Source: Escherichia phage dw-ec. From it: DNA of 64,000 nt. The translations under genes were made by a program, and so were the position numbers. Below, piece by piece: positions 49,575 to 62,095 of this stretch; position 1 is the stretch's first letter, and every line of letters begins with the position of its first letter. The stretch lies in the sequence record OL739525.1; one strand, written 5' to 3'. A model generated the notes under the pieces. It made no database searches, was not told the DNA's origin, and saw only the letters and a program-made list of their open reading frames with translations.

Positions 49575-49763
49575 ATGGCACGTTTAGCAGATCATGAAAT
49601 CTTTAAACCTATTCTGAACCATTATAATGAACTTAAAGCAGTGTTGGATTGTTATAAAGAGGATGAAGAACGCTTGGAAGTCAATCTTAAGATAGTTCTG
49701 ATGAAAGCTTTTCAAGACGGGCAAGCTGAAGTCTTAAGAGGTATGAAAAATGCGAATAACTGA
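49575..49763 (+). CDS. hypothetical protein
   Basis: ATG at 49575 with AAGGAGA RBS. Confidence 0.5.
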   Translation: MARLADHEIFKPILNHYNELKAVLDCYKEDEERLEVNLKIVLMKAFQDGQAEVLRGMKNANN

Positions 49764-50283
49764 TGAATATGTATTCTTCTTTTCACATAAAGATGTGTTT
49801 AGCAATTGGTACATTGCACCATTCACAGAGACGGAACCAGGGTACAGTGAGACTTTCTGTTGTGTAGAGCAATACATGATGTGGCGTAAGGCTTTGCTGT
49901 TCAAGGATCAGGTAATCGCAGCAGCTATCCTTGATCACTCAATGAAGCGAGACGACGAGAAGGGACAGGCATACTACAAGCGTATGGGTCGAGCGGTGTC
50001 TGGTTTTAATAATGACATGTGGGAAGAGTACCGAGAGCGTATCGTAATGCGAGGCTTATGCTTGAAGTATACACAGAACCCTGATCTTTACTCTGACTTG
50101 CGACTGTACCAATTCAAAACGTTCGTTGAGGCGAGTCCTTATGATAAGGTTTACGGAATTGGAATGGGTATGTACGAACCAGGGGTGCTTAATCCTGCCA
50201 ACTGGAAAGGGCAGAATCTTTTAGGTAAATATCATAATAAACTGATCGAAATACTTTTCCCAGACAAAATACCGCAAAGATGA
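49750..50283 (+). CDS. NADAR-domain protein (YbiA-like)
   Basis: 177 aa; FFFSHKDVFSNWY, CVEQYMMWRKALLF and KYTQNPDL..L segments fit the NADAR/DUF1768 fold family. Confidence 0.6.
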   Translation: MRITDEYVFFFSHKDVFSNWYIAPFTETEPGYSETFCCVEQYMMWRKALLFKDQVIAAAILDHSMKRDDEKGQAYYKRMGRAVSGFNNDMWEEYRERIVMRGLCLKYTQNPDLYSDLRLYQFKTFVEASPYDKVYGIGMGMYEPGVLNPANWKGQNLLGKYHNKLIEILFPDKIPQR

Positions 50284-50535
50284 TATTTGTGATATTTTAA
50301 CTTTTTTCATTTTTAGAACAAAGGTGTCACTTTGTAGCACAGAAATAAGGCTCCTACAGCACCGTAGAGAGCCTGTTATTTTGTCCTATACAAACCCTTA
50401 TCTTTTTCAGTTTGCATCACTAAGATTCGATCTAAGTGGGTTCCTGAAGGTCTACTAATAAGATTAAAGGTTATATCAAATTCCCACTATCCATTATCTC
50501 AAAAATCCCTCAAATTATTTAAACTTTTTAAGAAT

Positions 50536-50720
50536 TTACAAAAGTGAAAGTTGAAAACCAAAATTTAAAGTTTAGGAAAATTATCTTAAAATGTTAGATA
50601 CAAAACAAAACTCAAAAGTCAAGGAAAATTTTAAAAATTTTGCGCGCCCACAGTATTTAAAGTTTTTTTGCTTTTACAAAAATGAAAGTACAAAAGCAAA
50701 ATTTAAAGTTTACAAAAATT
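50536..50720. repeat. AT-rich direct repeats (two ~47-bp copies plus partial copies)
   Basis: 50536..50582 and 50674..50720 about 83% identical (TTACAAAA.TGAAAGT...AAAATTTAAAGTTTA..AAAATT); ATTTAAAGTTT occurs three times. Confidence 0.7.
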
Positions 50721-50731
50721 TTTATGCAGGT

Positions 50732-50752
50732 GAGAATGAGAAGAGTTCTCAT
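50732..50752. promoter_or_regulatory. palindromic operator-like site (ATGAGAA-gag-TTCTCAT)
   Basis: Perfect 7-bp inverted repeat; same half-site family as the Fur-box-like elements. Confidence 0.4.
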
Positions 50753-50762
50753 ATGGAAATGC

Positions 50763-50783
50763 AAATGATAATGATTCGCATTT
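50763..50783. promoter_or_regulatory. Fur-box-like element
   Basis: AAATGATAATGATTCGCATTT, partial match to GATAATGATAATCATTATC. Confidence 0.4.
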
Positions 50784-50820
50784 AAGTTTATAAATGAGAT
50801 TGATTCTTATTTAATAAGGT

Positions 50821-50850
50821 AAATGATAATCATTCTCATTTAGAGAATGA
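50821..50850. promoter_or_regulatory. Fur-box-like element with TCATTCTC-attta-GAGAATGA palindrome
   Basis: AATGATAATCATTCTC matches 15 of 16 positions of the Fur-box core AATGATAATCATTATC. Confidence 0.5.
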
Positions 50851-51098
50851 CGCGCAGGGGCGGTGTTTGTCTCGCGCTCCCGTGTCCCCTCGCCATGTAA
50901 TAAGAATAACAGATCCAGCCAGGAAAGCAAGCGATTATTTTATCTTTACATTTCTTTACAAATATATAGCGCCCAGCCTACCGGCGATCAACCTTCCAAC
51001 CAGCGCCCTGGTATGTTAGCCCCGCCTTTACGCCGTGGGGTGGCGCTTCCTCTTCTGTATGTAAAACAGTATAAGCCCGATCCCTGGGCTTGTCAAGA

Positions 51099-51365
51099 TT
51101 ATTTTTTGTTTTCTTGCCAGGATAGGACACCTAACCAAAAATACATATCGCCCCGCGCCCCTGGTGGTATCTTGCTTTCCCCGCCGCCACTGCAAGCCCA
51201 TAGATAACCATTTGCGAACGTATCAAAATGATCTATCTCTTCCACCTTATGATCGCCCAGGTTGAGAACGGTTTCAACCTTTAAGCCCGTTGCGCTTGCT
51301 ACCTGGTGCACCGTGCCGCCTTGCCAGCCCAATGAGTGCATAAGGTGTAATGTAGTAGTTGTCAT
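51099..51365 (-). CDS. hypothetical protein in GC-rich island
   Basis: 88 aa ORF with protein-like composition; surrounding 50860..51560 noticeably GC-richer than the rest of the window. Confidence 0.4.
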   Translation of the reverse strand: MTTTTLHLMHSLGWQGGTVHQVASATGLKVETVLNLGDHKVEEIDHFDTFANGYLWACSGGGESKIPPGARGDMYFWLGVLSWQENKK

Positions 51366-51474
51366 GGTGTCGCCCTTTCTTTGTTGTGCGCCCTGGTTGG
51401 CGCGGTAGAAAGATGATAGCCTTTTCCTTTATATATAGCAAGCAAAAAGAAAATAAAAAAGATTGAAAAAGTGG

Positions 51475-51503
51475 TTGACGTTCCTCACCTGGTAGCGTAG
51501 TAT
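51475..51503 (+). promoter_or_regulatory. sigma70-like promoter (TTGACG-17-TAGTAT)
   Basis: Upstream of 51639..51836. Confidence 0.4.
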
Positions 51504-51638
51504 TCATCTTGTCGAGGGGGGCGCGGCACAACGACAATAAAAAACAGGAGGGCGCAATGTAGGACGGGCAAAGGTGAGGATCTCCATAATCCACCGTCAA
51601 CCAACAAAAAACATCATTCATCACCTGGAGTTAAAATC

Positions 51639-51836
51639 ATGGCAACATTGCACATAGTAGCGAAAGCAGGACAAATCAGCGTCGTGGTAAACGGTTTTAC
51701 TGAGTTCAGTCATCCCCAGGATGATCATGAAACGGTTTTATCTTTCATTGATTCACTGTTAGAAATGGGAGTAATTACAGAAGACCAGCACGCTACAAAA
51801 TGCAAACGCGTTAATCAGATTGCAGGAATAGAATAA
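51639..51836 (+). CDS. hypothetical protein
   Basis: 65 aa ORF. Confidence 0.5.
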   Translation: MATLHIVAKAGQISVVVNGFTEFSHPQDDHETVLSFIDSLLEMGVITEDQHATKCKRVNQIAGIE

Positions 51837-51842
51837 AAAGTA

Positions 51843-51904
51843 TTGACAACAACCAACAACCTGATAAGATGTATCACATAGGGCGGCGGAATGGTCCACC
51901 GCTC
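51843..51904 (+). promoter_or_regulatory. promoter-leader cassette P1 (TTGACA-16-TAAGAT + leader stem-loop)
   Basis: -35 51843..51848, -10 51865..51870, then GTATCACATAGGGCGGCGGAATGGTCCACCGCTC hairpin and AGAAGAGAG leader. Confidence 0.7.
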
Positions 51905-51927
51905 ACAACAGAAGAGAGATTATAATC

Positions 51928-52200
51928 ATGGCATCATATAGCGCAACAATGATCGTAGCTGGCACCACTGGTAAACCTATGAGCGGTGGCGGATCTTTCG
52001 CAAATATCAACATTGACGGGCGTTTATCCCTGGACGCAGCGATCACCGTGGCGCGGGAAACATTTAAGAAAGAATGTAAATTCAATAAACAAGATTATCT
52101 CGGTTTTGCTATTGAAAAAACCGCGCGTTTTGTTGATTATAAAAGCCCAAAAATGGTTGATACTACACTAAAAGCGCAAGATGTAGCGTTTTTGCTTTAA
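51928..52200 (+). CDS. hypothetical early protein
   Basis: 90 aa ORF downstream of P1. Confidence 0.55.
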   Translation: MASYSATMIVAGTTGKPMSGGGSFANINIDGRLSLDAAITVARETFKKECKFNKQDYLGFAIEKTARFVDYKSPKMVDTTLKAQDVAFLL

Positions 52201-52203
52201 GGC

Positions 52204-52259
52204 TTGACATTAACGAATAATTTGTTAATATGTTACATAAAGCGGGAATAGTTCCCGCT
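52204..52259 (+). promoter_or_regulatory. promoter-leader cassette P2
   Basis: TTGACA, TAATAT, hairpin GCGGGAA-tag-TTCCCGC. Confidence 0.65.
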
Positions 52260-52276
52260 ATTTGTAAGGTGGTAGA

Positions 52277-52534
52277 ATGTTTTACATCAAATTAAAAGGT
52301 CACGTGATCGCGTTCAAAGATAACGCTTTTTACAGATTAGCAAAATATGCGTTAATACATCCCCACTATGTTTATATAAGGGGGCGTGATGAAATAAATA
52401 TCTTTGATCAAACAACATGCGAAAACATCGAGATCCGCAAGGTTGGCGTACGTGATTATCGTACATCTTTCTACCCTTGCAAGGATTCAGCAAGTCTTTT
52501 CAAAGTATGCCAATTGTTGAAAAAAGGTGGTTAA
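52277..52534 (+). CDS. hypothetical early protein
   Basis: 85 aa ORF. Confidence 0.55.
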   Translation: MFYIKLKGHVIAFKDNAFYRLAKYALIHPHYVYIRGRDEINIFDQTTCENIEIRKVGVRDYRTSFYPCKDSASLFKVCQLLKKGG

Positions 52535-52535
52535 T

Positions 52536-53093
52536 ATGGGCCGCGAATATGTGATCCAGTCTTGGGTAAAACATGAAGCAGATGATCCGCGCATCATTCC
52601 CGATCATCTTATCGATGAATCCACGGGATATAGCGGTGAGCAAATAGGTAACAGATTAGCACGTAGTAACGGCAACGTAAAAGCGCGTTATGTGCGCCCT
52701 GGTTGGCTGGCAAATGGTAATGCTGATTTATCCAGTGCGGAAGATGCGAGCGACGGCGCGAAAGATAATCCTTTGTACAAAGTTGATCCGGCTTTTCGTG
52801 TCCTGGATGAATACCCCAGCAAGATAGCGGCGCTCGATCAGGCCCTGGAAAGTAAGCGCATCACCTGGACCGCTTACAACATGGCAAAAAACGTACTTGA
52901 TGGTAAATTGATTCAAGCTGAAAGAAAATTAGCCAAAATTGCAGCCATAGCCCAGGAGGAAGACGAGGAGACAACGGAAGAGGAAGAGTACGAAGAGATC
53001 CCGCCGTTGTTGTGTGTTGATGCTTTTCCTGATTATCAGCCGACAGAGGAAGAAAAAAGGATCGCACTAGAAAACTTTGAAAATAGTCTTTGA
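52536..53093 (+). CDS. hypothetical early protein with acidic C-terminal region
   Basis: ATG at 52536 after AGGTGG; E-rich segment. Confidence 0.55.
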   Translation: MGREYVIQSWVKHEADDPRIIPDHLIDESTGYSGEQIGNRLARSNGNVKARYVRPGWLANGNADLSSAEDASDGAKDNPLYKVDPAFRVLDEYPSKIAALDQALESKRITWTAYNMAKNVLDGKLIQAERKLAKIAAIAQEEDEETTEEEEYEEIPPLLCVDAFPDYQPTEEEKRIALENFENSL

Positions 53094-53148
53094 CATATCG
53101 CCGCCACTGGCATAATATTTACCACGTAGGGCGGCAATGGTGCCGCTC
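53090..53148 (+). promoter_or_regulatory. promoter-leader cassette P3
   Basis: TTGACA-17-TAATAT, hairpin GCGGCA-atgg-TGCCGC. Confidence 0.65.
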
Positions 53149-53175
53149 ATAGTAAAATTATGCAAGAGGTTTGCA

Positions 53176-53271
53176 ATGATTAATAAAGAAAATAGCTTGA
53201 CGGTTGGAACGATTAACGCTATCATTTTCGCCGTTCCATTTTGGGTTGTAGTAGCGGCTATTATTTTCTAA
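53176..53271 (+). CDS. small hydrophobic peptide (31 aa)
   Basis: Not in ORF track; ATG after AAGAGG; MINKENSLTVGTINAIIFAVPFWVVVAAIIF; lies between cassettes P3 and P4. Confidence 0.35.
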   Translation: MINKENSLTVGTINAIIFAVPFWVVVAAIIF

Positions 53272-53280
53272 AAAATATTC

Positions 53281-53341
53281 TTGACAACGTTTTTTAATCT
53301 GATAAGATGTATCACATAGGGCGGCGGAATACTTCCCCGCC
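53281..53341 (+). promoter_or_regulatory. promoter-leader cassette P4
   Basis: TTGACA-16-TAAGAT, GTATCACATAGGGCGGCGGAATACTTCCCCGCC. Confidence 0.65.
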
Positions 53342-53362
53342 AAAACAAAAAAGGGTAACACA

Positions 53363-53725
53363 ATGAGCAAGCAAATCAGTACTATCATGTTTAATCTGGT
53401 ATCTTTCCGCGATGATATGAAAAATTTACCACGTGAAACGGTTGATATTCATGTTTCAGCTTATCGCGCCCTTATTGACATGTTACCGCTAAAACGTGAT
53501 CAACATGCCGCTAATATGATGCTTAATGCTATGCTTAAAAAGATGATTCAAACGGATCTCACCCTGGCATATGAGTATCAAGGGCGCTTATATGCAACTT
53601 ACAACAAAGCGGTACCTGGTTTGGGAAGTACCGAAGAGTTGCACGGCTTAAACCTGGATCAAAACACTTGGGATAGTATGCGCCGCGTTATGGTATGGGC
53701 CGAAAGCGGTAAAATTTACGAATAA
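53363..53725 (+). CDS. hypothetical early protein
   Basis: 120 aa ORF. Confidence 0.55.
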   Translation: MSKQISTIMFNLVSFRDDMKNLPRETVDIHVSAYRALIDMLPLKRDQHAANMMLNAMLKKMIQTDLTLAYEYQGRLYATYNKAVPGLGSTEELHGLNLDQNTWDSMRRVMVWAESGKIYE

Positions 53726-53731
53726 AAACGG

Positions 53732-53788
53732 TTGACACTGTTTAAACTTCTGGTATAGTTTATCACGTAGGGCGGCAATGGTGCCGCC
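53732..53788 (+). promoter_or_regulatory. promoter-leader cassette P5
   Basis: TTGACA-16-TATAGT, hairpin GGCGGCA-atgg-TGCCGCC. Confidence 0.65.
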
Positions 53789-53808
53789 AACAATAAAAGG
53801 TTAACATC

Positions 53809-53988
53809 ATGGCTATCATTGCAAAAACTGAGATTATAGGTTTAGATTCGATCCTCCTGGCTTATGAGGAAACTTTAAAAATGTATATAGTGACCTATGG
53901 TGATTATGTGCGTGAATACGAATACATTGATCTTGCTTTCGAATGTTACATTCGCCAGGTCAATAAAGCCTATAACGATTATCGTTAA
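53809..53988 (+). CDS. hypothetical early protein (59 aa)
   Basis: Not in ORF track; starts MAI like neighbouring cassette genes; hand-translated. Confidence 0.45.
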   Translation: MAIIAKTEIIGLDSILLAYEETLKMYIVTYGDYVREYEYIDLAFECYIRQVNKAYNDYR

Positions 53989-54007
53989 AAGTTTTAGTCT
54001 TATACTA

Positions 54008-54060
54008 TTGACAATGAGTGATAGTATAAGCATAATAACTTTTATCGGGAATACTTCCCA
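54008..54060 (+). promoter_or_regulatory. promoter-leader cassette P6
   Basis: TTGACA-17-CATAAT, hairpin GGGAA-tac-TTCCC. Confidence 0.6.
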
Positions 54061-54085
54061 CTAACCAAAAAGAGAGAGTGACACC

Positions 54086-54451
54086 ATGGCTATTAATATC
54101 AATGTTTCCGCTTATGCTACCCTGGCTAACACGGCTAAAATTGAATTATCCAGCATTGAGGCGGTGCATATTAGCGCCCGTCGCTGGTTTCAACGGTCCT
54201 ACGGTAACACATATTTTTCTTTAATGGTTGACGTTGAGATCGGCGGTAAACTGATCGAGGTGGTTAACGTTCCGTTTCAATATGGCTATGGTGATCATTT
54301 TGATACCGTCGCCCTGGAAGAATTTAGCAAGGTTATCAACCTTGAGGGCAAGGAATTTTCACGCGGCGCGTATCTTTCCCGTTTTTGCCGTGACAATGGG
54401 ATCACTGTATACAGTCATGCAAGCGATGTAAAACGTAAAAAAGATTTATAA
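54086..54451 (+). CDS. hypothetical early protein
   Basis: 121 aa ORF. Confidence 0.55.
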   Translation: MAININVSAYATLANTAKIELSSIEAVHISARRWFQRSYGNTYFSLMVDVEIGGKLIEVVNVPFQYGYGDHFDTVALEEFSKVINLEGKEFSRGAYLSRFCRDNGITVYSHASDVKRKKDL

Positions 54452-54456
54452 AAGCA

Positions 54457-54517
54457 TTGACAGCACGAATAAAAAGAGTAAACTGTATTACATAGAGAGC
54501 GGGAATAGTTCCCGCCT
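54457..54517 (+). promoter_or_regulatory. promoter-leader cassette P7
   Basis: TTGACA-16-TAAACT, GTATTACATAGAGAGCGGGAATAGTTCCCGCC. Confidence 0.65.
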
Positions 54518-54539
54518 CATTCAAAGAGAGATTATCATC

Positions 54540-54779
54540 ATGGCTATTACTAAAACTTACAACGGTCACAAAAACAAAACTCACTGGAATGTAAGCCTTT
54601 GGATTAATAACGATGAATCGTTATACCGGTTGGCCCAAGATTTTATTAACGCTAATGCTAATCGTAATGATGCGGCGCGGGATATGATGCTTTTTCTGGA
54701 ACAAACTGGACAAGATAAAACGCCAGACGGTTTCAAATATAGCACTACTGCGATCCGTGCCGCGATGGTTGGAATGTAA
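54540..54779 (+). CDS. hypothetical early protein
   Basis: 79 aa ORF. Confidence 0.55.
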   Translation: MAITKTYNGHKNKTHWNVSLWINNDESLYRLAQDFINANANRNDAARDMMLFLEQTGQDKTPDGFKYSTTAIRAAMVGM

Positions 54780-54788
54780 TAAAAACAG

Positions 54789-54849
54789 TTGACAACGTTT
54801 AAAATTAGTGTAAGATGTATCACATAGGGCGGGAAGTGGTTTCCCGCCA
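54789..54849 (+). promoter_or_regulatory. promoter-leader cassette P8
   Basis: TTGACA-16-TAAGAT, hairpin GGCGGGAA-gtggt-TTCCCGCC. Confidence 0.65.
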
Positions 54850-54869
54850 AAACAGAGAGATTAAAGATT

Positions 54870-55097
54870 ATGGCTATCAATATTGTTCGCGTATCCGGCA
54901 CCGTTGGCACTTCCCAGGTCATTGCAGTTGTAACAAACAAAAAGATTAATGATGTATGTGAGATCTTGAATAAGTGGGCTGTTGCTAATTTTGGGGAATA
55001 TGCAAGCGTCGAGTACATCGAATCCTACCAGGTGCCAACCATCAGCCTAACCGATCTCAACGTTGATCGCCTGTTATGCCTGGATGAATTAATCTGA
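54870..55097 (+). CDS. hypothetical early protein
   Basis: 75 aa ORF. Confidence 0.55.
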   Translation: MAINIVRVSGTVGTSQVIAVVTNKKINDVCEILNKWAVANFGEYASVEYIESYQVPTISLTDLNVDRLLCLDELI

Positions 55098-55106
55098 AAA
55101 AGATTG

Positions 55107-55164
55107 TTGACACGGGAAAGAAAAAGAGTAAACTGTATTACGTAGGGCGGCAATAGTGCCGCTC
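55107..55164 (+). promoter_or_regulatory. promoter-leader cassette P9
   Basis: TTGACA-16-TAAACT, hairpin GCGGCA-atag-TGCCGC. Confidence 0.65.
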
Positions 55165-55187
55165 ACAACAGAAGAGAGATTATCACG

Positions 55188-55400
55188 ATGGCTAATATCC
55201 GCACACTGTTAAAAAATGCAAGTCAAGTTTTATTTTCTGATCACGATCATTTTAATAAAGATATTACAGGCGTGAAGAATATCAAAGATGTAAAAAGTGT
55301 TATGGGTATATATTGCAATGTTAAACGTGTTGGAACGTTCGGTGATAAAGTATTGTATCAATCAGGTGATTACAATTTTACTTTGACGATTATTTCATAA
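55188..55400 (+). CDS. hypothetical early protein
   Basis: 70 aa ORF. Confidence 0.55.
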   Translation: MANIRTLLKNASQVLFSDHDHFNKDITGVKNIKDVKSVMGIYCNVKRVGTFGDKVLYQSGDYNFTLTIIS

Positions 55401-55406
55401 AACCGC

Positions 55407-55468
55407 TTGCAATACTGCAAAAATAAAGTAAACTGTATTACATCAAGGCGGCGGAATGGTCCACCGCC
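55407..55468 (+). promoter_or_regulatory. promoter-leader cassette P10
   Basis: TTGCAA-16-TAAACT, hairpin GGCGGCGGAATGGTCCACCGCC. Confidence 0.6.
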
Positions 55469-55492
55469 TAACAAAGAGAAGAGGAAAACATC

Positions 55493-55660
55493 ATGATCAC
55501 TTTCGCTACCCGTGAAGCCGCTCGCAACGTTGCCCGTAAAGTTAACGCCGCCAACCTGGGCGCTACGTTTAAAGCACCTGTAAAAGATGAATCAGGAAAA
55601 TGGATCTTCCCTGGTCTGCGTCACGCTGATAAGCTAGGCACTTTAAGCCTTAAAAAATAA
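55493..55660 (+). CDS. hypothetical early protein (55 aa)
   Basis: Not in ORF track; MITFATREAARNVARKV...; shares MITFA start with 55735..55956. Confidence 0.45.
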   Translation: MITFATREAARNVARKVNAANLGATFKAPVKDESGKWIFPGLRHADKLGTLSLKK

Positions 55661-55663
55661 TCG

Positions 55664-55701
55664 TTGACTTTTCGTTATAGCGCCCATTATAAGGCGCTAT
55701 A
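55664..55701 (+). promoter_or_regulatory. promoter-like element P11 with distinct hairpin
   Basis: TTGACT then AGCGCC-cattataa-GGCGCT hairpin overlapping the -10 region. Confidence 0.4.
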
Positions 55702-55734
55702 GAGAAGAGAAACCACTACTAACAAGGAAACATC

Positions 55735-55956
55735 ATGATCACTTTCGCTATTGTCGCCGTTGTTGCTGGTCAGGTTTACGTAAACGATACATTCACCACA
55801 GAAGACAAGGCCGCAGGAGACATAACCGCCGTTTACAATGAGTGCAAGGCAGTAGAAAGAATGTTAGCGCCTTGTATGCTAATGAGTGAACGCCAGGACG
55901 GGATAACAGTATTTACTAACATTGAAACAGGGTACCAAATGGTAGTAACAAAATAA
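55735..55956 (+). CDS. hypothetical early protein
   Basis: 73 aa ORF. Confidence 0.5.
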   Translation: MITFAIVAVVAGQVYVNDTFTTEDKAAGDITAVYNECKAVERMLAPCMLMSERQDGITVFTNIETGYQMVVTK

Positions 55957-55959
55957 AGC

Positions 55960-56018
55960 TTGACACGGATTTAATTTTCAGTAAACTGTTACACGTAGAG
56001 CGGGAATAGTTCCCGCTC
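55960..56018 (+). promoter_or_regulatory. promoter-leader cassette P12
   Basis: TTGACA-17-TAAACT, hairpin GCGGGAA-tag-TTCCCGC. Confidence 0.65.
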
Positions 56019-56035
56019 AAAAAGAGAGAAAGACC

Positions 56036-56389
56036 ATGAAAGCACAAAATGCAATTAAAGAGTACATCCTTGCCGCTATCGATTTTAATGATTACGGTAT
56101 TACAACCGAAAAAGAGAAGATCGCGGAATTGATGCGCCGTTTTAATTCCGAGTACTGGTACCCTGATAACCAATCACGTTTTAATTATAGTATTGTTAAA
56201 GCACTTGCATCATGGTTACAAGGTTTGCCATCAGATATCAATATCGCTTTCGAATATTGGGAAATTGATCGCCTGTTAACATCCTGGGGATACATTAAAG
56301 AGAATAGCAGCGATGATAAAATCCAACGAGAAAGGGAAAATTATTGGCTTTATATTGCAGGCGTGATCCTTGCTTGCTCTTATGAATGA
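56036..56389 (+). CDS. hypothetical early protein
   Basis: 117 aa ORF. Confidence 0.55.
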   Translation: MKAQNAIKEYILAAIDFNDYGITTEKEKIAELMRRFNSEYWYPDNQSRFNYSIVKALASWLQGLPSDINIAFEYWEIDRLLTSWGYIKENSSDDKIQRERENYWLYIAGVILACSYE

Positions 56390-56395
56390 TAAACC

Positions 56396-56449
56396 TTGAC
56401 AATTTTACAAAACAGTTTAAATTAATAATATAGCGGCAATGGTACCGCT
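56396..56449 (+). promoter_or_regulatory. promoter-leader cassette P13
   Basis: TTGACA, AT-rich -10 region, hairpin GCGGCA-atgg-TACCGC (one mismatch). Confidence 0.5.
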
Positions 56450-56468
56450 CATATAAAGAGGAAACAAA

Positions 56469-56615
56469 ATGAATACATCTAATCGCGCAGAAAAAATTCA
56501 ATCTTCCAAGATCCGCAAGGCCTGGAATGAGGAAGTGATCCGCAAAGGCGACAAGCGCAATAAAACAAAGCGCGGGAAGAGTGACAAATATAATTGGATG
56601 GATTTAGAGAATTAA
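56469..56615 (+). CDS. small basic protein (48 aa)
   Basis: Not in ORF track; ATG after AAGAGGAAA; Lys/Arg-rich. Confidence 0.4.
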   Translation: MNTSNRAEKIQSSKIRKAWNEEVIRKGDKRNKTKRGKSDKYNWMDLEN

Positions 56616-56621
56616 CATAAC

Positions 56622-56650
56622 AAGGGCGCACCAAGCGCCCTTTCTTTTTA
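56622..56650 (+). terminator. rho-independent terminator
   Basis: GGGCGC-accaa-GCGCCC followed by TTTCTTTTT; near-identical copies at 61964 and 62529. Confidence 0.7.
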
Positions 56651-56670
56651 CATGTAGAGGATAAACAAAA

Positions 56671-56856
56671 ATGACTTTAAACGAGCTTAAAACAGCGTAC
56701 AGCGCAACATTAAAAATAGCCGTGCGTTACCGTGACGAATACGGTTTTATTGCGCAGGGCGTGATCCTGGGCTTTTCTGACGATGGTTTGATCTATGTTG
56801 ATGCACATTATAACAAGGTTAAACCGGAAAACGTTATTAGCATAAAATATCTTTAA
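56671..56856 (+). CDS. hypothetical early protein
   Basis: 61 aa ORF. Confidence 0.5.
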   Translation: MTLNELKTAYSATLKIAVRYRDEYGFIAQGVILGFSDDGLIYVDAHYNKVKPENVISIKYL

Positions 56857-56862
56857 AAACGG

Positions 56863-56922
56863 TTGACACCATAACCGGACCTGTTAAACTGTATTACATC
56901 AGGCGGGGAATAGTTCCCCACC
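56863..56922 (+). promoter_or_regulatory. promoter-leader cassette P14
   Basis: TTGACA-16-TAAACT, hairpin GGGGAA-tag-TTCCCC. Confidence 0.65.
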
Positions 56923-56941
56923 ATACAAAAAGGTAAATATT

Positions 56942-57148
56942 ATGATCACCGCAAAACAAGAAAAAATCATTATCGACGTTGCAGCCGTTGCCGCTATCGC
57001 TATTATTGGATCTTATTATGATACCCGTTTCCCGTCGGCTATGCATGAGGTCGCCGCCGTTGCATCAGTTGGCGTACTGTTTTACGTTGGTAAACGCTAT
57101 TTATCACCAATGATTAACAAGCTGACACCGTGGAAAAATAAAGGTTGA
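56942..57148 (+). CDS. small membrane protein
   Basis: 68 aa; hydrophobic segment IIIDVAAVAAIAIIG. Confidence 0.5.
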   Translation: MITAKQEKIIIDVAAVAAIAIIGSYYDTRFPSAMHEVAAVASVGVLFYVGKRYLSPMINKLTPWKNKG

Positions 57149-57201
57149 TCCTGTTTTACATTGTGTTATAGTTATCGTGTAGGGCGGCAATGGTGCCGCG
57201 C
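57145..57201 (+). promoter_or_regulatory. promoter-leader cassette P15
   Basis: TTGATC-16-TATAGT, hairpin GCGGCA-atgg-TGCCGC. Confidence 0.55.
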
Positions 57202-57219
57202 CCCTTTGAGGATGCAATC

Positions 57220-57504
57220 ATGAGTAAAGCTAACACCGTGCTAATGTTTTCCCTGATTAATGATCTCGCTTACTTGTCCAACATGACGCAGGAGGGTAAC
57301 ACATTAACGGCAACATTCACCAATAAGCTTGACCGAGTGATCATCATCTCACTGAAAACAGTTAGTAAAGGCTTTTACTCGTTAGCTTATCATTGGATCA
57401 CCGATACCGATGAGACAAGCCAGGACTATAGCGCCCCTTTCCCTGAATCAATGGCACGGGAGATCATCGCCGCCGTTATAAATGATGGTTTGTTTACTGC
57501 ATAA
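57220..57504 (+). CDS. hypothetical early protein
   Basis: ATG at 57220 after GAGGA; track start 57190 lies inside the leader hairpin. Confidence 0.5.
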   Translation: MSKANTVLMFSLINDLAYLSNMTQEGNTLTATFTNKLDRVIIISLKTVSKGFYSLAYHWITDTDETSQDYSAPFPESMAREIIAAVINDGLFTA

Positions 57505-57521
57505 ATAATTTAGAAAAAGGC

Positions 57522-57578
57522 TTGCAATCATTTTGAGATAGTGTATATTTAATTCATAGGGCGGCGGGAATAGTTCCC
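57522..57578 (+). promoter_or_regulatory. promoter-leader cassette P16
   Basis: TTGCAA, TATATT, hairpin GGGAA-tag-TTCCC. Confidence 0.55.
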
Positions 57579-57601
57579 AAAGCAAACGAGAGGATTACAC
57601 G

Positions 57602-57721
57602 ATGAGCAAGTACACAGTAGAATACACGGTAGAAAATCCGGCAGTATCCGAAGGTAAAAAGATGACATTTGCCATCAGTATAATCGCTTTCGTTGTCACT
57701 ATCTTATCAATCATCTTATAA
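57602..57721 (+). CDS. small membrane peptide (39 aa)
   Basis: Not in ORF track; ATG after GAGAGGA; C-terminal TM helix FAISIIAFVVTILSIIL. Confidence 0.35.
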   Translation: MSKYTVEYTVENPAVSEGKKMTFAISIIAFVVTILSIIL

Positions 57722-57731
57722 GGTGCACACC

Positions 57732-57893
57732 ATGAAAACAACAGACATTATCAAAGAGATCGCCCTTGCCGCTGGCGTTGAAGTCGAGGAAGTGATCGCG
57801 CTCAATCTTACAGAAAACGATCTGCGCAACTATGAAGCGGAAAGCGTGAAAGCAAGCGGCGCGGTCCTGGTATATGATCCGGCTAACAAGTAA
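57732..57893 (+). CDS. hypothetical early protein
   Basis: ATG at 57732 after AAGGTG. Confidence 0.45.
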   Translation: MKTTDIIKEIALAAGVEVEEVIALNLTENDLRNYEAESVKASGAVLVYDPANK

Positions 57894-57902
57894 GGGGATA
57901 AC

Positions 57903-58013
57903 ATGAATCCGAAAGATATGCAAGCATGGAAAGGGTACGACGATCTAAGCGCCTTGCGCAATAAGTCAAGCCGTAACCTTAGACGGTTGGAAGCAAAGAA
58001 AAAGAAAAAATAG
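57903..58013 (+). CDS. small basic protein (36 aa)
   Basis: Not in ORF track; ATG after AAGGGGA; Lys-rich tail. Confidence 0.3.
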   Translation: MNPKDMQAWKGYDDLSALRNKSSRNLRRLEAKKKKK

Positions 58014-58014
58014 T

Positions 58015-58071
58015 TTGACAAGTCCGCCTAGTCTGATAATATGTATCTTGTAGGGCGGCAATGGTGCCGCT
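58015..58071 (+). promoter_or_regulatory. promoter-leader cassette P17
   Basis: TTGACA-16-TAATAT, hairpin GCGGCA-atgg-TGCCGC. Confidence 0.65.
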
Positions 58072-58091
58072 CACAAGAAGAGAGAAAAATC

Positions 58092-58376
58092 ATGAAAATC
58101 ACAAAAAGCCTAACTAATTATGCAGCACGTCGCGGATTATGTTTAACCGTTGAAAACTTAGGGAAAGAAGACTTTTTGTGTTTTTGGGAGCTTGAAAATG
58201 ATTGCGAGTGGATGTTTTCTTATTCTATCTGCGAAGATCAAAACGGTTGTTTGTTAACCTGGCGCGGTAATATCTATTTACCGGAAGAAATTAAAGAAGA
58301 GTTACCAGGTACGATCATGACAGAGAGACAGCTTAAGGAAATGATTAATTTTGTAGGGCAAAACATTAAAAAATAA
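58092..58376 (+). CDS. hypothetical early protein
   Basis: ATG at 58092 (track start 58041 overlaps the leader hairpin). Confidence 0.5.
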   Translation: MKITKSLTNYAARRGLCLTVENLGKEDFLCFWELENDCEWMFSYSICEDQNGCLLTWRGNIYLPEEIKEELPGTIMTERQLKEMINFVGQNIKK

Positions 58377-58377
58377 T

Positions 58378-58440
58378 TTGACAGCACGCAAATAACGTAG
58401 TAAAGTTTATTACATAGAGCGGCGGAATGGTCCACCGCTC
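58378..58440 (+). promoter_or_regulatory. promoter-leader cassette P18
   Basis: TTGACA-17-TAAAGT, hairpin GCGGCGGAATGGTCCACCGC. Confidence 0.65.
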
Positions 58441-58461
58441 ACAACAGAAGAGAAACAAATC

Positions 58462-58632
58462 ATGATCCCGACTATGTTTTATGTATCGCGCAAAGGTCAC
58501 AATATTTTTTGGTCTGAAGATTTAAATGAAGCTATGACGTTTGCCCGTGATCGTGTTGCTATCGGTGGCGTTAACATCACCGTAACCGATGAAAACGGCA
58601 TTGAATACTATAACGGCGACAATGAAGAGTAA
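58462..58632 (+). CDS. hypothetical early protein (56 aa)
   Basis: Not in ORF track; hand-translated without stops. Confidence 0.45.
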   Translation: MIPTMFYVSRKGHNIFWSEDLNEAMTFARDRVAIGGVNITVTDENGIEYYNGDNEE

Positions 58633-58639
58633 TCAACAA

Positions 58640-58657
58640 GGCGGGATTAATCCCGCC
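58640..58657 (+). other. intergenic stem-loop (GGCGGGAT-ta-ATCCCGCC)
   Basis: Perfect 8-bp stem between two small genes; no U-tract. Confidence 0.5.
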
Positions 58658-58676
58658 TGTATTAAAGGGCAATATA

Positions 58677-58814
58677 ATGAAAACTTTCAACGCAACAGCC
58701 TCGACAATTGGTTATATTATTACAGTACAAGCCGTTGACCTGGTAGCGGCAGCAAACAAGATTAAAAAAATGATCCCAACAGGCAGCGAATTTTCCGTTT
58801 GGGAAGTAAAATAA
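58677..58814 (+). CDS. hypothetical early protein (45 aa)
   Basis: Not in ORF track; hand-translated. Confidence 0.4.
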   Translation: MKTFNATASTIGYIITVQAVDLVAAANKIKKMIPTGSEFSVWEVK

Positions 58815-58817
58815 AGC

Positions 58818-58880
58818 TTGACAATAATTTGTTATCTAGTAAAGTGTATTACGTAGGGCGGGGCAATGGTGCAACGCCCA
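58818..58880 (+). promoter_or_regulatory. promoter-leader cassette P19
   Basis: TTGACA-16-TAAAGT, GTATTACGTAGGGCGGGGCAATGGTGCAACGCCC. Confidence 0.6.
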
Positions 58881-58897
58881 TTAATGAGGGTAGAATC

Positions 58898-59002
58898 ATG
58901 TTAGAGAAAATTTTCACGGTTGCAGTGGTTGGCCTGGCGTTATCGGTTGGAGTAGTTGCAACTATGGCTAATATGATCCTATCTTCCCACGGTATCGGTT
59001 AA
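58898..59002 (+). CDS. small membrane peptide (34 aa)
   Basis: ATG at 58898 after GAGGGTAGAA; MLEKIFTVAVVGLALSVGVVATMANMILSSHGIG. Confidence 0.35.
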   Translation: MLEKIFTVAVVGLALSVGVVATMANMILSSHGIG

Positions 59003-59003
59003 G

Positions 59004-59228
59004 GTGAAACAAATGATCACGAACAAAACAGGCAAAACGGAATTTTTACGCGGCTTACAAGTTGGTAAGCCTGAGATCTGGCATTGCACGAAGTCCGCGC
59101 ATAATGAAATGAAAGATTTTACCGCTACTTTACAACGTGTTAAAATATCTATCACACAGAAAAAAGCCTTGTTAGTAGTAGAAAACGAGATCCCGCAAAC
59201 TATTATTATTGTCGAGCGTACAGCATGA
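59004..59228 (+). CDS. hypothetical early protein
   Basis: 74 aa ORF. Confidence 0.5.
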   Translation: MKQMITNKTGKTEFLRGLQVGKPEIWHCTKSAHNEMKDFTATLQRVKISITQKKALLVVENEIPQTIIIVERTA

Positions 59229-59611
59229 AAACAGAAATCATTATTGAAATCATCAACGGCTATAAAGAAGCCTTTATTTTTGCTGAATCAGCAAGGGATC
59301 ATGAAGGTAATTTTATTGATAACTTAGACGATTATGATTTTTCTCCTAGCGCGGATCAACGGATCGCCCAGGATGTAACAGCCTTTATTAATGCTAATCT
59401 TGCCGCTATCTCTGAGGCAATGAGCGACGGCGCAACAGCCAACCAGATCGGGAATGATTTACATTTTACCCGTAACGGTCACGGCGTAGGCTTTTGGGAT
59501 CGCCCTGAAATATACACCACTAACACGGCGAACCGCCTAACCAATGCAGCTAAGTTTATGCCGAACGTGTCGGCTTACATTGGTGAAGATAATTTGATTT
59601 ATATTGAATAA
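59225..59611 (+). CDS. hypothetical early protein
   Basis: 128 aa ORF. Confidence 0.55.
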   Translation: MKTEIIIEIINGYKEAFIFAESARDHEGNFIDNLDDYDFSPSADQRIAQDVTAFINANLAAISEAMSDGATANQIGNDLHFTRNGHGVGFWDRPEIYTTNTANRLTNAAKFMPNVSAYIGEDNLIYIE

Positions 59612-59617
59612 AAAGTA

Positions 59618-59675
59618 TTGACACAGATCGCCAGTGTGATAATATTTACCACGTAGGGCGGCAATGGTGCCGCTC
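59618..59675 (+). promoter_or_regulatory. promoter-leader cassette P20
   Basis: TTGACA-16-TAATAT, hairpin GCGGCA-atgg-TGCCGC. Confidence 0.65.
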
Positions 59676-59694
59676 ACTGTAAAAGGTAAACATT

Positions 59695-59886
59695 ATGAAA
59701 ACTATCACCTATCTGGAATCGAATAACATGTTTTTTGCGCCCGTTGATGAAATCATCGAAGCATTAAACAACGAGGAAGGGATCAATGGTTTATCTTATA
59801 GCCAACTTTTAGGAATGGTTGCAGCAAATGCAGAGCTTGCTTACTATGTTGAAAATTTTGATGAAGCTGTAATCTTTACAAAATAA
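59695..59886 (+). CDS. hypothetical early protein
   Basis: 63 aa ORF. Confidence 0.5.
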   Translation: MKTITYLESNNMFFAPVDEIIEALNNEEGINGLSYSQLLGMVAANAELAYYVENFDEAVIFTK

Positions 59887-59889
59887 TCC

Positions 59890-59946
59890 TTGATCTAATC
59901 TCTTAAATAACTTATATTTAATGCGTAGGGCGGCAATGGTGCCGCC
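59890..59946 (+). promoter_or_regulatory. promoter-leader cassette P21
   Basis: TTGATC-17-TATATT, hairpin GGCGGCA-atgg-TGCCGCC. Confidence 0.55.
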
Positions 59947-59964
59947 GATAATGAGGAAAGTAAA

Positions 59965-60264
59965 ATGGAAACTATCGCTATTGTTACCGTAGAAAAACTG
60001 GTTGTTGGTGATGTATTCGCGTTAATGGTGCCTAACAGCAGCAAGCTGGGCGCTTATGAAGTAATGGATCATAAAAATGAATCATTTGGCGACGGTTGCA
60101 CAATGGCGGTAAAATCTTTAAAGGATGGAATCATCCGTCAAGCTAATTGGCACAAAGGAAATCAAGTCGGATTAATATCAGCTAATTTCTTGCCAGAAGA
60201 GCAAACGTTAGACCAACTGTCAGGCGGTAAGACGTTAGCCGAACTACTGGAAACAGCGATCTAA
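59965..60264 (+). CDS. hypothetical early protein
   Basis: 99 aa ORF. Confidence 0.55.
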   Translation: METIAIVTVEKLVVGDVFALMVPNSSKLGAYEVMDHKNESFGDGCTMAVKSLKDGIIRQANWHKGNQVGLISANFLPEEQTLDQLSGGKTLAELLETAI

Positions 60265-60272
60265 TCAACAAA

Positions 60273-60288
60273 GGGGCGGCAACGCCCC
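60273..60288 (+). other. intergenic stem-loop (GGGGCG-gcaa-CGCCCC)
   Basis: 6-bp GC stem with GNRA-type loop, no U-tract. Confidence 0.5.
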
Positions 60289-60308
60289 ACGTCAGAAAGG
60301 AAAAGATT

Positions 60309-60545
60309 ATGAGTATTGCAACAGTATTAAACGCCGTTAAAACCGCTGAATCATCCGGCTTACATGTTGAGCTTATAGATCAACCAGGTGGCGATCTCCT
60401 GGTCCAGGTTTACCCGCCGAAAGTAGGGGATGATTATTATTGGTGCTATTCCGATACGTTCGAACAAGTAGACACGAAAGCGATCACGGCTTTTATTTTA
60501 AAAGCTATTGAAGAAAATAATTTTCATTATAACATCAATCAATAA
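60309..60545 (+). CDS. hypothetical early protein
   Basis: 78 aa ORF. Confidence 0.5.
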   Translation: MSIATVLNAVKTAESSGLHVELIDQPGGDLLVQVYPPKVGDDYYWCYSDTFEQVDTKAITAFILKAIEENNFHYNINQ

Positions 60546-60554
60546 ACCATAAGC

Positions 60555-60570
60555 GGGGCGGTAACGCCCC
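60555..60570 (+). other. intergenic stem-loop (GGGGCG-gtaa-CGCCCC)
   Basis: Same stem as 60273 with a different GNRA loop. Confidence 0.5.
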
Positions 60571-60600
60571 ATTAAACGCAATAGGAAGAGGCTAGAAAGC

Positions 60601-60885
60601 ATGAAAAAGATGATCGCAGTAGTTGCCCTGGTTGTTGGTATTAACGCGCCTGTAATGGCGAAAGAGTTGCCAGAATCCATCACGTTAACCGATATTAACG
60701 CAGTGAACCGGATCGGCGTTAATTATCGCCTATGCCTTGCCGCTAAAACTTTCCAGGACGGCACAACAGAGTACTACGGATTCGAGGGTGTCCGGTGCGG
60801 TGAGCTTGCACGCGACCTTAAGGAAGATCCAGACCTTGAGGCCATACCGATGACCGTAAACGGTAAAGCCCAGGTAAACCGCTAA
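60601..60885 (+). CDS. secreted/periplasmic protein
   Basis: Signal peptide MKKMIAVVALVVGINAPVMA. Confidence 0.55.
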   Translation: MKKMIAVVALVVGINAPVMAKELPESITLTDINAVNRIGVNYRLCLAAKTFQDGTTEYYGFEGVRCGELARDLKEDPDLEAIPMTVNGKAQVNR

Positions 60886-60887
60886 CC

Positions 60888-61022
60888 ATGAGAAAGGTAA
60901 TCATCACAATGGGGATCGTAGTAGCAACGCTGGCGCTTATCCCCTTCCTGGTTGAATATGTGCTGATTAATGTTGTCCTGGTAGTCAGTGACCTATTGGA
61001 AACGGTTGGCAACTGGTTTTAA
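60888..61022 (+). CDS. small membrane peptide (44 aa)
   Basis: Not in ORF track; ATG after GAGAAAGG; two hydrophobic segments. Confidence 0.35.
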   Translation: MRKVIITMGIVVATLALIPFLVEYVLINVVLVVSDLLETVGNWF

Positions 61023-61197
61023 GATAAATAAACAGGGCTTGCTTTTGTCCTGTTTTTTGTTATGCTTATTGAACGGGCGGCACCTGGGAGCAGGGGAAGA
61101 TAATCACCGGAAGACCCCGCTATATATTGATAGCTAACATCTATCAAACAACAAAACATCAAAGGAATAAACTATCAAATCTTTACAATCCCACCTA

Positions 61198-61254
61198 TTG
61201 ACACCGGATCACGCTTACATTATTATTTATCACGTAGGGCGGGAATGTTTCCCA
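61198..61254 (+). promoter_or_regulatory. promoter-leader cassette P22
   Basis: TTGACA-17-TATTAT, hairpin GGGAA-tgt-TTCCC. Confidence 0.6.
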
Positions 61255-61274
61255 CCTGATTTAGGAGTCATATC

Positions 61275-61508
61275 ATGATCGAACAAATTAAAAGCACTAC
61301 ACCAAATGTTAACGGTAATGTTTCTCACTTTATCGGGGATAATGAAAGAGGTACACCGTACGCCGCCGTAACCGTTCAACCTAACGGGGATTATTGGTTT
61401 ACCGTGTACGGATCTTACTCTTTTGGACGTTCGGCACATGATAAGATCTTGCAAGTGGTTAAGCCTACTGGGAAGAATATCACAGCAGAAAAATTTTATA
61501 AAAAATAA
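61275..61508 (+). CDS. hypothetical early protein
   Basis: 77 aa ORF. Confidence 0.5.
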   Translation: MIEQIKSTTPNVNGNVSHFIGDNERGTPYAAVTVQPNGDYWFTVYGSYSFGRSAHDKILQVVKPTGKNITAEKFYKK

Positions 61509-61569
61509 CTTGCTTTATAGCTCCTGTTAACTTATAGTTATTGCGTAGGGCGAGCAATACAGCAAGCCC
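61509..61569 (+). promoter_or_regulatory. promoter-leader cassette P23 (divergent variant)
   Basis: TTGCTT, TATAGT, then TTGCGTAGGGCGAGCAATACAGCAAGCCC with alternative pairing. Confidence 0.45.
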
Positions 61570-61586
61570 ACAAAGAGGAAAATAAA

Positions 61587-61955: not shown

Positions 61956-61963
61956 GATTATAC

Positions 61964-61990
61964 AAGGGGCGCACTAAGCGCCCTTTAACG
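61964..61990 (+). terminator. rho-independent terminator
   Basis: GGGGCGC-actaa-GCGCCCC followed by TTTAACG. Confidence 0.55.
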
Positions 61991-62011
61991 TAAAGAAATG
62001 TAAATAATGCG

Positions 62012-62050: not shown

Positions 62051-62095
62051 TAACTCACTGGCAGCAAACAACGAAACGAAACAAAGGATAACACT

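Follow-up and report, generated by a model that had tools for sequence, protein, structure and literature searches.

The analysed stretch of DNA (hereafter the window: 64,000 nucleotides of Escherichia phage dw-ec, record OL739525.1) belongs to a Phapecoctavirus (Stephanstirmvirinae), a lytic myovirus of the phAPEC8/ESCO13 type with a genome of ~150 kb. A megablast search with positions 50300-52300 returned 144 phage records, the best of which (95-99% identity) were the Escherichia phages BI-EHEC, ESCO13 and phAPEC8. A rightward operon, whose final gene encodes a NADAR-domain protein, ends at 50283, and the phAPEC8 annotation places a terminator directly after this gene; the first small early gene lies at 51639. 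Within the 1.35-kb gap between them, which holds no convincing gene, we found an array of palindromes at the left edge of a ~12-kb early-gene block, between AT-rich repeats and a conserved GC-rich segment (Table 1). Triple repeats of a different sequence occupy the equivalent position in phi92, rV5-like and PVP-SE1-like phages.

Some 200-210 nt of conserved non-coding DNA separate the array and the hairpin that follows it from a strong leftward promoter, whose position is kept in the phage SSE121 as TTGCAA-17-TATAGT. The 88-aa minus-strand ORF is the sole likely gene in the GC-rich island. A 114-aa plus-strand ORF (50863-51207) was rejected as a gene, as it carries a 1-nt indel in phi92 and an annotated frameshift in the phage Schickermooser and has no PHROG or Pfam match. 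No iron-related function was found among 24 neighbouring ORFs, and a Pfam search of 20 early ORFs returned only DUF7249 and no DNA-binding domain. The island is thus conserved non-coding DNA plus the 88-aa gene, not iron cargo, and the analogy with Fur-controlled phage toxin genes, drawn in a preliminary description of this DNA, fails: the 114-aa ORF is not coding, the 88-aa ORF has no assigned function and nothing iron-related lies nearby.

Table 1 Features of the array locus and of the right genome end (positions in the window; Fur boxes with their matrix scores and, for the array, matches to the 19-bp consensus).
Feature	Position	Strand	Details
AT-rich direct repeats	50511-50720		25% GC; two 72-nt units 138 bp apart, with 34-nt sub-repeats; directly left of the boxes
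Candidate rightward promoter overlapping box 1	50709-50737	+	TTTACA-17-GAGAAT, 9/12; -10 at 50732-50737
Fur box 1	50734-50754		GAATGAGAAGAGTTCTCATAT; 17.0 bits; 13/19
Fur box 2	50763-50783		AAATGATAATGATTCGCATTT; 23.8 bits; 14/19
Fur box 3	50792-50812		AAATGAGATTGATTCTTATTT; 18.2 bits; 12/19
Fur box 4 (promoter-proximal)	50821-50841		AAATGATAATCATTCTCATTT; 25.9 bits of a possible ~26.7; 16/19
Candidate sigma-70-type promoter P2	50819-50848	+	GTAAAT-18 nt-GAGAAT; predicted start near 50855
GC-rich hairpin	50851-50895		invariant loop motif GGTG(W)TTGTCTC; contains GGTGTTTGTCTC
Strong leftward sigma-70 promoter	51068-51096	-	TTGACA-17-TATACT, 11/12; converges on the boxes
88-aa gene	51099-51365	-	phrog_19316, no assigned function; phi92 gp224, anhysbys_79
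Leftward promoter of the 88-aa gene	51413-51441	-	TTGCTA-17-TATCAT; divergent from the first early promoter
First rightward early promoter	51475-51503	+	TTGACG-17-TAGTAT; early-gene block begins here
Fur box, second non-coding gap	62762-62782		19.6 bits
Direct terminal repeat, 329 bp	63516-63844		63844 is the physical right genome end
Fur box, direct terminal repeat	63589-63609		21.0 bits
Fur box, direct terminal repeat	63768-63788		22.5 bits; overlaps the -10 of an outward promoter, TTGCAT-18-GATAAT

The preliminary description had reported three adjacent Fur-box-like elements at this place. Their location was right and their number too low, as the array (50734-50841) consists of four 21-bp sequences, each palindromic around a central base, with start-to-start spacings of 29, 29 and 29 bp. 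The core quoted for them, ATGATAAT(C/G)ATTC(T/G)CAT, occurs exactly in boxes 2 and 4 only, and boxes 1 and 3 are degenerate. The best copy does agree with the Fur-box core at 15 of 16 positions, as had been claimed (AATGATAATCATTCTC against AATGATAATCATTATC, one position different). All four boxes match the 19-bp consensus GATAATGATAATCATTATC at ~11 or more of 19 positions, the level of accepted Fur sites, and when compared to TGATAATnATTCTCA for the 7-1-7 inverted repeat (TGATAAT-N-ATTATCA) box 4 has no mismatch, box 2 has one and boxes 1 and 3 have three each. In addition to its main palindrome, box 2 has a secondary site shifted by 6 bp (50757-50777, 14.7 bits); the corresponding site of box 4 is weak (50815/50821, 9.4 bits), and boxes 1 and 3 have none. 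A degenerate version of the pattern matched the window 37 times, compared to 14 ± 4.6 expected.

We derived a Fur matrix by de novo palindromic EM on 13 intergenic regions of Fur-repressed genes of E. coli K-12 (MG1655): fepA-fes, fepD-entS, fepB-entC, feoA, ryhB, tonB, fecI, fhuF, fhuA, cirA, exbB, fiu and fhuE. When EM was started from 40 random k-mers with no Fur consensus given, the top-scoring solutions all converged on AAATGATAATCATTATCATTT, and the matrix equalled that of a consensus-seeded run. The matrix was specific, since all 18 sites of at least 14 bits in 169 kb of E. coli DNA lay in training promoters or upstream of oppA or acnA, regions that are earlier predicted Fur clusters (PMC2189734). 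In leave-one-out scoring the host operators reached 9.8-21.4 bits (median 16.9), and the best host site had 22.4 bits compared to 25.9 bits for box 4. Scoring with a Fur matrix, a check proposed in the preliminary description, thus placed the four boxes (17.0-25.9 bits) level with or above host operators. The top seven sites in the 64 kb were the four boxes and those at 62762, 63589 and 63768, all in two non-coding gaps, and the eighth was the shifted partner of box 2. With boxes ranked among the seven best by a matrix made from host promoters, their identification as Fur boxes has strong sequence support.

These scores lie well outside what chance would give. In 2000 runs of an order-2 Markov model fitted to the AT-rich DNA of the locus, sites of at least 17 bits averaged 0.0015, compared to four observed, and no run matched the observed site count or maximum; whole-window Markov-1 simulations gave an expectation of 0.04 such sites per 64 kb. 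The half-sites favoured by the phage, TGAGAAT and ATTCTCA, are likewise present in E. coli operators, namely those of fecI, fhuE, ryhB, fhuA, exbB, feoA and entC. KdgR, ArgR and Zur boxes were considered by inspection and rejected; the outer AAATG...CATTT of the boxes resembles Zur and KdgR flanks, but the inner GATAAT/ATTATC is Fur-specific. We are fairly confident that host Fur binds these sites.

The phage boxes share with E. coli Fur operators such as those of fecI, fhuF, ryhB, fhuA and cirA (19-bp or 7-1-7, TGATAATnATTATCA) a common 21-bp consensus, the tolerated variants (T/G at position 7, a free central base) and, at some boxes, a 6-bp-shifted site; their scores lie within the host range or above it. 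Pairs of sites 6 bp out of phase have been described for real Fur clusters (PMC2189734), and such pairs occur in the window at 50757/50763 and 63762/63768, in addition to the 29-bp spacing of the main array. However, the E. coli operators are overlapping hexamer arrays, whereas the boxes of the phage stand apart as complete palindromes at 29-bp intervals, nearer to consensus than any host site tested, and they lie in non-coding DNA of a lytic phage with no iron-related gene downstream. It is textbook knowledge that Fur boxes control bacterial iron promoters and a small number of cargo genes in prophages; the stx1 promoter of Stx1 phages is Fur-regulated. The phage-carried sitABCD genes of lambdoid prophages are Fur-regulated as well (PMC6969025). 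As in those cases, phage-borne Fur boxes would here connect a phage locus to the iron regulon of the host; in contrast to the single box that precedes a prophage cargo gene at stx1 and sitABCD, we see multi-box arrays in regulatory and terminal non-coding DNA of virulent phages, with no identifiable cargo beside them.

The surroundings of box 4 suggest how the array could be read. Its sequence covers the -35 and spacer of candidate promoter P2, and the hexamer GAGAAT follows at 50843-50848; P2 was missed by a generic promoter scan because its -35 (GTAAAT) is weak in this phage. The hairpin downstream opens with AGGGGCGG, ~8 nt after the hexamer, and this start resembles the AGGGCGG... hairpins of early transcripts: each of ~20 early promoters of this phage precedes such a 5' hairpin at a similar distance. 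The same order of last box, 1-2 nt, -10-like hexamer, ~12 nt and hairpin is kept in Phapecoctavirus, Justusliebigvirus, Vequintavirus, Seunavirus and further IMG/VR lineages, with the hexamer varying between GAGAAT, CAGAAT, CGGAAT and TATATT. In Vequintavirinae the left edge of the box reads TTGAAT, 18 nt upstream of CAGAAT, and it is reasonable to regard TTGAAT-18-CAGAAT as a sigma-70 promoter with the Fur box as its -35 and spacer. Alternatively, the hexamer may represent the U-rich tail of a terminator that ends leftward transcription, as all lineages have a GC hairpin with a U-rich run after it. We prefer operators at a promoter mainly because of the fixed geometry of box, hexamer and hairpin and the likeness of this hairpin to those of the early promoters.

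Hairpin stems vary between lineages while the loop is invariant, and one helix shows a double compensatory change. In an RNAalifold analysis of 10 homologues, covariation was local only, comprising the hairpin stems and a change of CCCC:GGGG to CCAA:TTGG; there was no strand preference (-81 vs -87 kcal/mol), and long-range pairs were unconvincing. Single-sequence folding of 50842-51062 gave no stable-RNA signal on either strand (z-scores 0.05 and 0.62), and Rfam (at gathering thresholds and at E ≤ 5) and tRNA scans found nothing relevant.

The boxes are widely conserved. A distant blastn search with 50700-50900 matched 417 phage records, and we read the homologous regions of phi92, slur16 (rV5-like) and SSE121 (PVP-SE1-like), together with further ones retrieved from IMG/VR through the hairpin motif; every region read had at least one strong Fur box. 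In SSE121 and PVP-SE1 the one box at the locus (23.9 bits) is the promoter-proximal one, rV5-like phages have boxes of 22.9 and 23.0 bits, and phi92 has five of 18.8-25.9 bits. The number of boxes per locus ranges from 1 to 6 (0 to 5 upstream of the proximal box), and their spacing also varies. Box 4 is the only one found in every related lineage, and the position of box 3 scores 16.9-21.9 bits in close relatives. The rV5 genome paper labels the equivalent region merely "non-coding".

A pattern scan of IMG/VR with AATGAKAATSATTMTCATT extended this to at least 120 loci, far above the handful estimated by chance. Among the matches listed, 70 loci had at least two and 31 at least three boxes of at least 15 bits within 400 bp, and GC content ranged from 21% to 58%; six of these matches were T5-like, and two matched Vequintavirinae/Phapecoctavirus flanks by blastn. 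The arrays sit in ORF-free gaps (median 757 bp), compared to an ORF-free share of only 20% for the loci overall. One contig of 21% GC (L098) carries 13 boxes beside DnaA boxes, as in T5, and at another locus (L181) the boxes lie upstream of a consensus promoter. At 31 IMG/VR loci, the only families that recurred with arrays were the terminase large subunit (8) and DnaB-type helicase/primase (5), neither of them a regulator, at counts close to those expected from locus size, and no small protein family co-occurred with the arrays.

These distributions bear on the alternative, already raised in the preliminary description, that the boxes are operators of a phage-encoded dimeric regulator that shares the sequence preference of Fur. 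Regularly spaced palindromes are typical of phage operators, and most early ORFs here have no assigned function. However, the 21-mer recurs in Demerecviridae, Vequintavirinae and Stephanstirmvirinae and in over 100 IMG/VR contigs, carriers that show no relationship in nucleotide sequence and span 21% to 58% GC. A host factor common to them accounts better for this distribution. A tblastn search of 50,697 phage records with E. coli Fur found no homologue in Phapecoctavirus, Vequintavirus or Tequintavirus records; the only matches were to unrelated phage records, many of them short unannotated fragments. With no Fur homologue, no DNA-binding domain in the 20 early ORFs (the window covers 64 of ~151 kb) and no co-occurring small family, a phage-encoded regulator is less parsimonious than host Fur, and we think it very improbable.

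Tentatively, and with something short of even confidence, we favour the reading that the four palindromes are high-affinity operators of host Fur, through which transcription beside the early block would respond to iron status. The agreement with Fur operators, its conservation and the fixed geometry are observed in the sequence, and from them we infer Fur occupancy, the promoters and the regulatory outcome. In an iron-replete cell, Fe2+-Fur dimers would occupy all four sites once the DNA enters. Fur on box 1 would cover the -10 and start of the weak rightward promoter there, and Fur on box 4 the -35 and spacer of the second weak rightward promoter, P2, so that rightward transcription would be silenced; the P2 transcript would start with the GC hairpin and be antisense to the strong leftward promoter and the 88-aa gene. 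Fur on the array would also form a protein barrier at the place where leftward transcripts end. Under iron scarcity, apo-Fur would leave and rightward transcription would be released. Control of the adjacent GC-rich segment by iron, as proposed in the preliminary description, is plausible, given the fixed distance between box 4, hexamer and hairpin in every related lineage and the likeness of that hairpin to those of the other early transcripts. Several observations argue against operators of this kind. The -35 of P2 is poor in this phage, the presumed RNA has neither a thermodynamic nor an Rfam signal on either strand, no iron-related product is encoded downstream, and four separated near-consensus palindromes exceed the need of one weak promoter. 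Furthermore, loci with up to 13 boxes, and the boxes of L181 upstream of a consensus promoter, are unlike the geometry of simple repression.

An alternative is a Fur sink, in which the sites are decoys that capture Fur and do not act in local control. With ~10 near-consensus sites in each genome and many genome copies after replication, the phage would titrate Fur and thereby derepress iron uptake and the Fur regulon or free other phage DNA from Fur. A cell contains an estimated few thousand Fur molecules. Box 4, with 25.9 of ~26.7 possible bits compared to 22.4 for the best host site, appears supra-optimal, and both copy number (1 to 6; 13 in L098) and spacing vary freely. Titration by multicopy Fur boxes is an established effect: in the Fur titration assay they derepress fhuF::lacZ (cited in PMC2189734). 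Many strong boxes on replicating phage DNA must likewise compete with chromosomal sites, although the assay itself is a laboratory artefact of plasmid copy number. However, PVP-SE1 and SSE121 keep only the promoter-proximal box at this locus, which indicates a position-dependent role, and in T5 derepression of host genes cannot be the purpose because that phage degrades host DNA within minutes. We regard a Fur sink as unlikely. It is not exclusive of the operators that we favour, and operator, sink and architectural roles may coexist.

The second group of boxes lies at the genome end. Alignments of all relatives stop at 63844, and several records begin or end there. In Schickermooser, the first and last 329 bp are identical and match window positions 63516-63844 at 97% identity; the termini of that phage have been determined, with a 328-bp repeat reported. 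As the repeat maps to these positions, the two strongest boxes of the second locus lie inside it. The last 156 nt of the window have no phage match. They contain what we take to be Oxford Nanopore adapter and barcode sequences, an untrimmed artefact that gives evidence, separate from the alignments, that the DNA physically ends at 63844. The array therefore lies 13.0 kb from the right end, a distance of 8.6% of the genome. A promoter scan of the second locus was too noisy in AT-rich DNA to be used. No DnaA box (TTWTNCACA or relaxed) was found in 50000-51700 or 62400-63900, where there was one IHF-like match.

A further similarity links the array to phage T5. By blastn, boxes 2-3 match T5-like phages within their terminal repeats, and the T5 match (AY587007, 9468-9637) corresponds to "direct repeat C copies 1-4" and "palindromes E-I" of the injection-stop region, between the DnaA boxes and nick 1. 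The host matrix gives the T5 units 19.3, 25.9 and 20.7 bits and also finds 6-bp-shifted partners; no other cluster in the first 12 kb of T5 comes close to them in strength. The comparative study of Davison discusses the DnaA boxes and palindromes of this region and never Fur; its calculated shear point, 9618, falls inside a box at 9611-9631. A preprint of April 2026 still describes the T5 stop signal only as "rich in repeats and palindromes". Both loci are large, repeat-rich non-coding regions that border the early block ~8% from a genome end, with the boundary of first-step transfer at 7.9% in T5 and the array at 8.6% in this phage. In T5, however, the boxes belong to a terminal repeat of 10 kb and have paired DnaA boxes and a nick site next to them, whereas the array described here has no DnaA boxes and lies in unique sequence 13 kb from its 329-bp repeat.

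The likeness to T5 raises the possibility of an architectural role, in which a nucleoprotein structure of bound Fur would mark where the early block begins and stops and where the genome ends. It might insulate against read-through or keep H-NS from spreading out of the AT-rich repeats, or it might serve as a checkpoint of DNA entry like the T5 stop. Fur antagonises H-NS at ftnA. The early block has boxes on either side, the 329-bp terminal repeat contains boxes too, and arrays of unrelated contigs occupy gaps free of ORFs (median 757 bp). The T5 boxes coincide with direct repeat C and palindromes E-I, with the calculated shear point in a box, and the first-step-transfer boundary of T5 is at 7.9%, compared to 8.6% for the array here. 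This percentage match may, however, be a coincidence, the paired DnaA boxes of T5 are missing here and the terminal repeat, at 329 bp, is far shorter than the 10 kb of T5. To our knowledge two-step injection is unknown in myoviruses, and a cytoplasmic protein on DNA that has already entered would not obviously stop further entry. An architectural role thus seems to us distinctly improbable.

The locus could also be part of a replication origin, with iterons, host-factor sites and an activating transcript acting together. In every lineage the boxes have tandem AT-rich repeats next to them, convergent promoters face each other across a G-rich transcript, and boxes adjoin DnaA boxes in T5 and L098 and other iteron-like repeats in T5 and a further contig (L129); five arrays lie near primase-helicase genes. 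The absence of DnaA boxes from the scanned regions, and GC-skew changes that track gene orientation only, weaken this idea. The origins of T5 map to the middle of its genome, and we know of no role of Fur in replication initiation. An origin has, in our view, only a slim chance of being the explanation.

Literature searches linking Fur with first-step transfer, phAPEC8, rV5 or Fur boxes of lytic phages found nothing, and arrays of consensus Fur boxes as conserved non-coding or terminal elements of virulent phages, including the T5 palindromes, appear unreported. On the combined sequence evidence, these viruses probably recruit Fur for a purpose so far undescribed. A much broader proposal, which we put forward as speculation and consider improbable as a whole, is that Fur-box arrays are a general, unrecognised cis-element of large virulent enterobacterial phages and many uncultured ones that captures iron-loaded Fur on the first-entering DNA; the T5 stop palindromes would then be Fur sites, and Phapecoctavirus would have such arrays on either side of its early block and in its terminal repeat. 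If this were true, Fur would be a missing host factor in first-step transfer of T5 or in control of its early programme, and the T5 injection-stop region in any case gains a concrete and cheap Fur hypothesis to test. If Fur binds the boxes, coliphages that are therapeutic candidates (phAPEC8-, phi92-, rV5-, PVP-SE1- and T5-like) would sense or manipulate host iron, which would be directly relevant to the iron-starved environment of the infected host.

The non-coding DNA to the right of the Fur-box-like palindromes carries further conserved elements. We found that the tandem motif TCTTTACAtttCTTTACAAA is retained from Phapecoctavirus through Seunavirus, and that it also adjoins a Fur-box array in L086, a 345-kb IMG/VR contig (3600-3623). 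From its sequence, a second element, AGCCCCGCCTTTACGCCGTGGGGTGGCG, could form an H-type pseudoknot in which CCCC:GGGG pairing is interleaved with CGCC:GGCG; in one distant relative, L033, CCCC:GGGG is replaced by CCAA:TTGG at this site, a double compensatory change.

Predicted Fur boxes also occur in other phages. In the rV5-like phages the whole module is duplicated, with the second copy (2660-2760 of L005, from slur16) ~130 bp downstream of the first; this second module consists of overlapping Fur boxes at a 6-bp offset followed by a GC hairpin with GGTGGTTGTCTC, and a TTGACA-17-CACAAT promoter converges on it. A set of 13 Fur boxes of 15.8-24.4 bits lies at 2150-2850 of an IMG/VR locus with 21% GC (L098, 3300026512_000013), within a 1.2-kb ORF-free gap; immediately after it come four sequences resembling DnaA boxes (TTATCAACA and TTATGCACA, two of each). 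The same two kinds of element are paired in the injection-stop region of T5.

Almost all early promoters (TTGACA...TAAGAT-like) are followed by a conserved hairpin, AGGGCGGCAATGGTGCCGCTC, at ~20 sites between 51840 and 62060. The annotated "PHIRE promoters" of phAPEC8 coincide with these hairpins downstream of early promoters; instead of being promoters, they thus probably form stem-loops at the 5' ends of early transcripts. CCWGG, the Dcm/EcoRII site, is also enriched in the early block (compared over 51000-62500): it occurs 10 times in 51-52 kb and 8 times in 60-61 kb, against ~1 per kb or less over 1-50000. In the equivalent region of the rV5-like phages, the motif ACCTGGCGGGGCC is repeated.

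A long non-coding tract rich in C and A and poor in G (caacaaccaacaacaaacc...) lies after the last early gene and before the direct terminal repeat; neither an ORF nor a repeat or RNA family was detected in it. The repeat of Schickermooser, a relative with determined termini, has the same extent, and nucleotide 63844, at which the phage genome physically ends on the right, is also where many database records begin or end. The final 156 nt (63845-64000) had no match to any phage record and include Oxford Nanopore library sequences, namely barcode BC01 AAGAAAGTTGTCGGTGTCT in both orientations, the rapid-barcode flank GGTTAAACACCCAAGC and an adapter piece TGTACTTCGTTCAGTT. This stretch is an untrimmed assembly artefact attached to the true DNA end.

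Features in and around the non-coding DNA and at the right genome end
Feature	Position	Strand	Detail
NADAR-domain protein gene	49750-50283	+	last before gap; PF08719, E = 7e-34
Tandem motif	50937-50958		
Candidate pseudoknot	51016-51045		
Early-promoter hairpin sites (examples)	51843-51905; 53090-53150; 59618-59680		
Non-coding tract	62690-63130		
Direct terminal repeat	63516-63844		329 bp

The NADAR family removes ADP-ribose from DNA, and the NADAR-domain protein encoded beside the gap may therefore have an anti-defence function.
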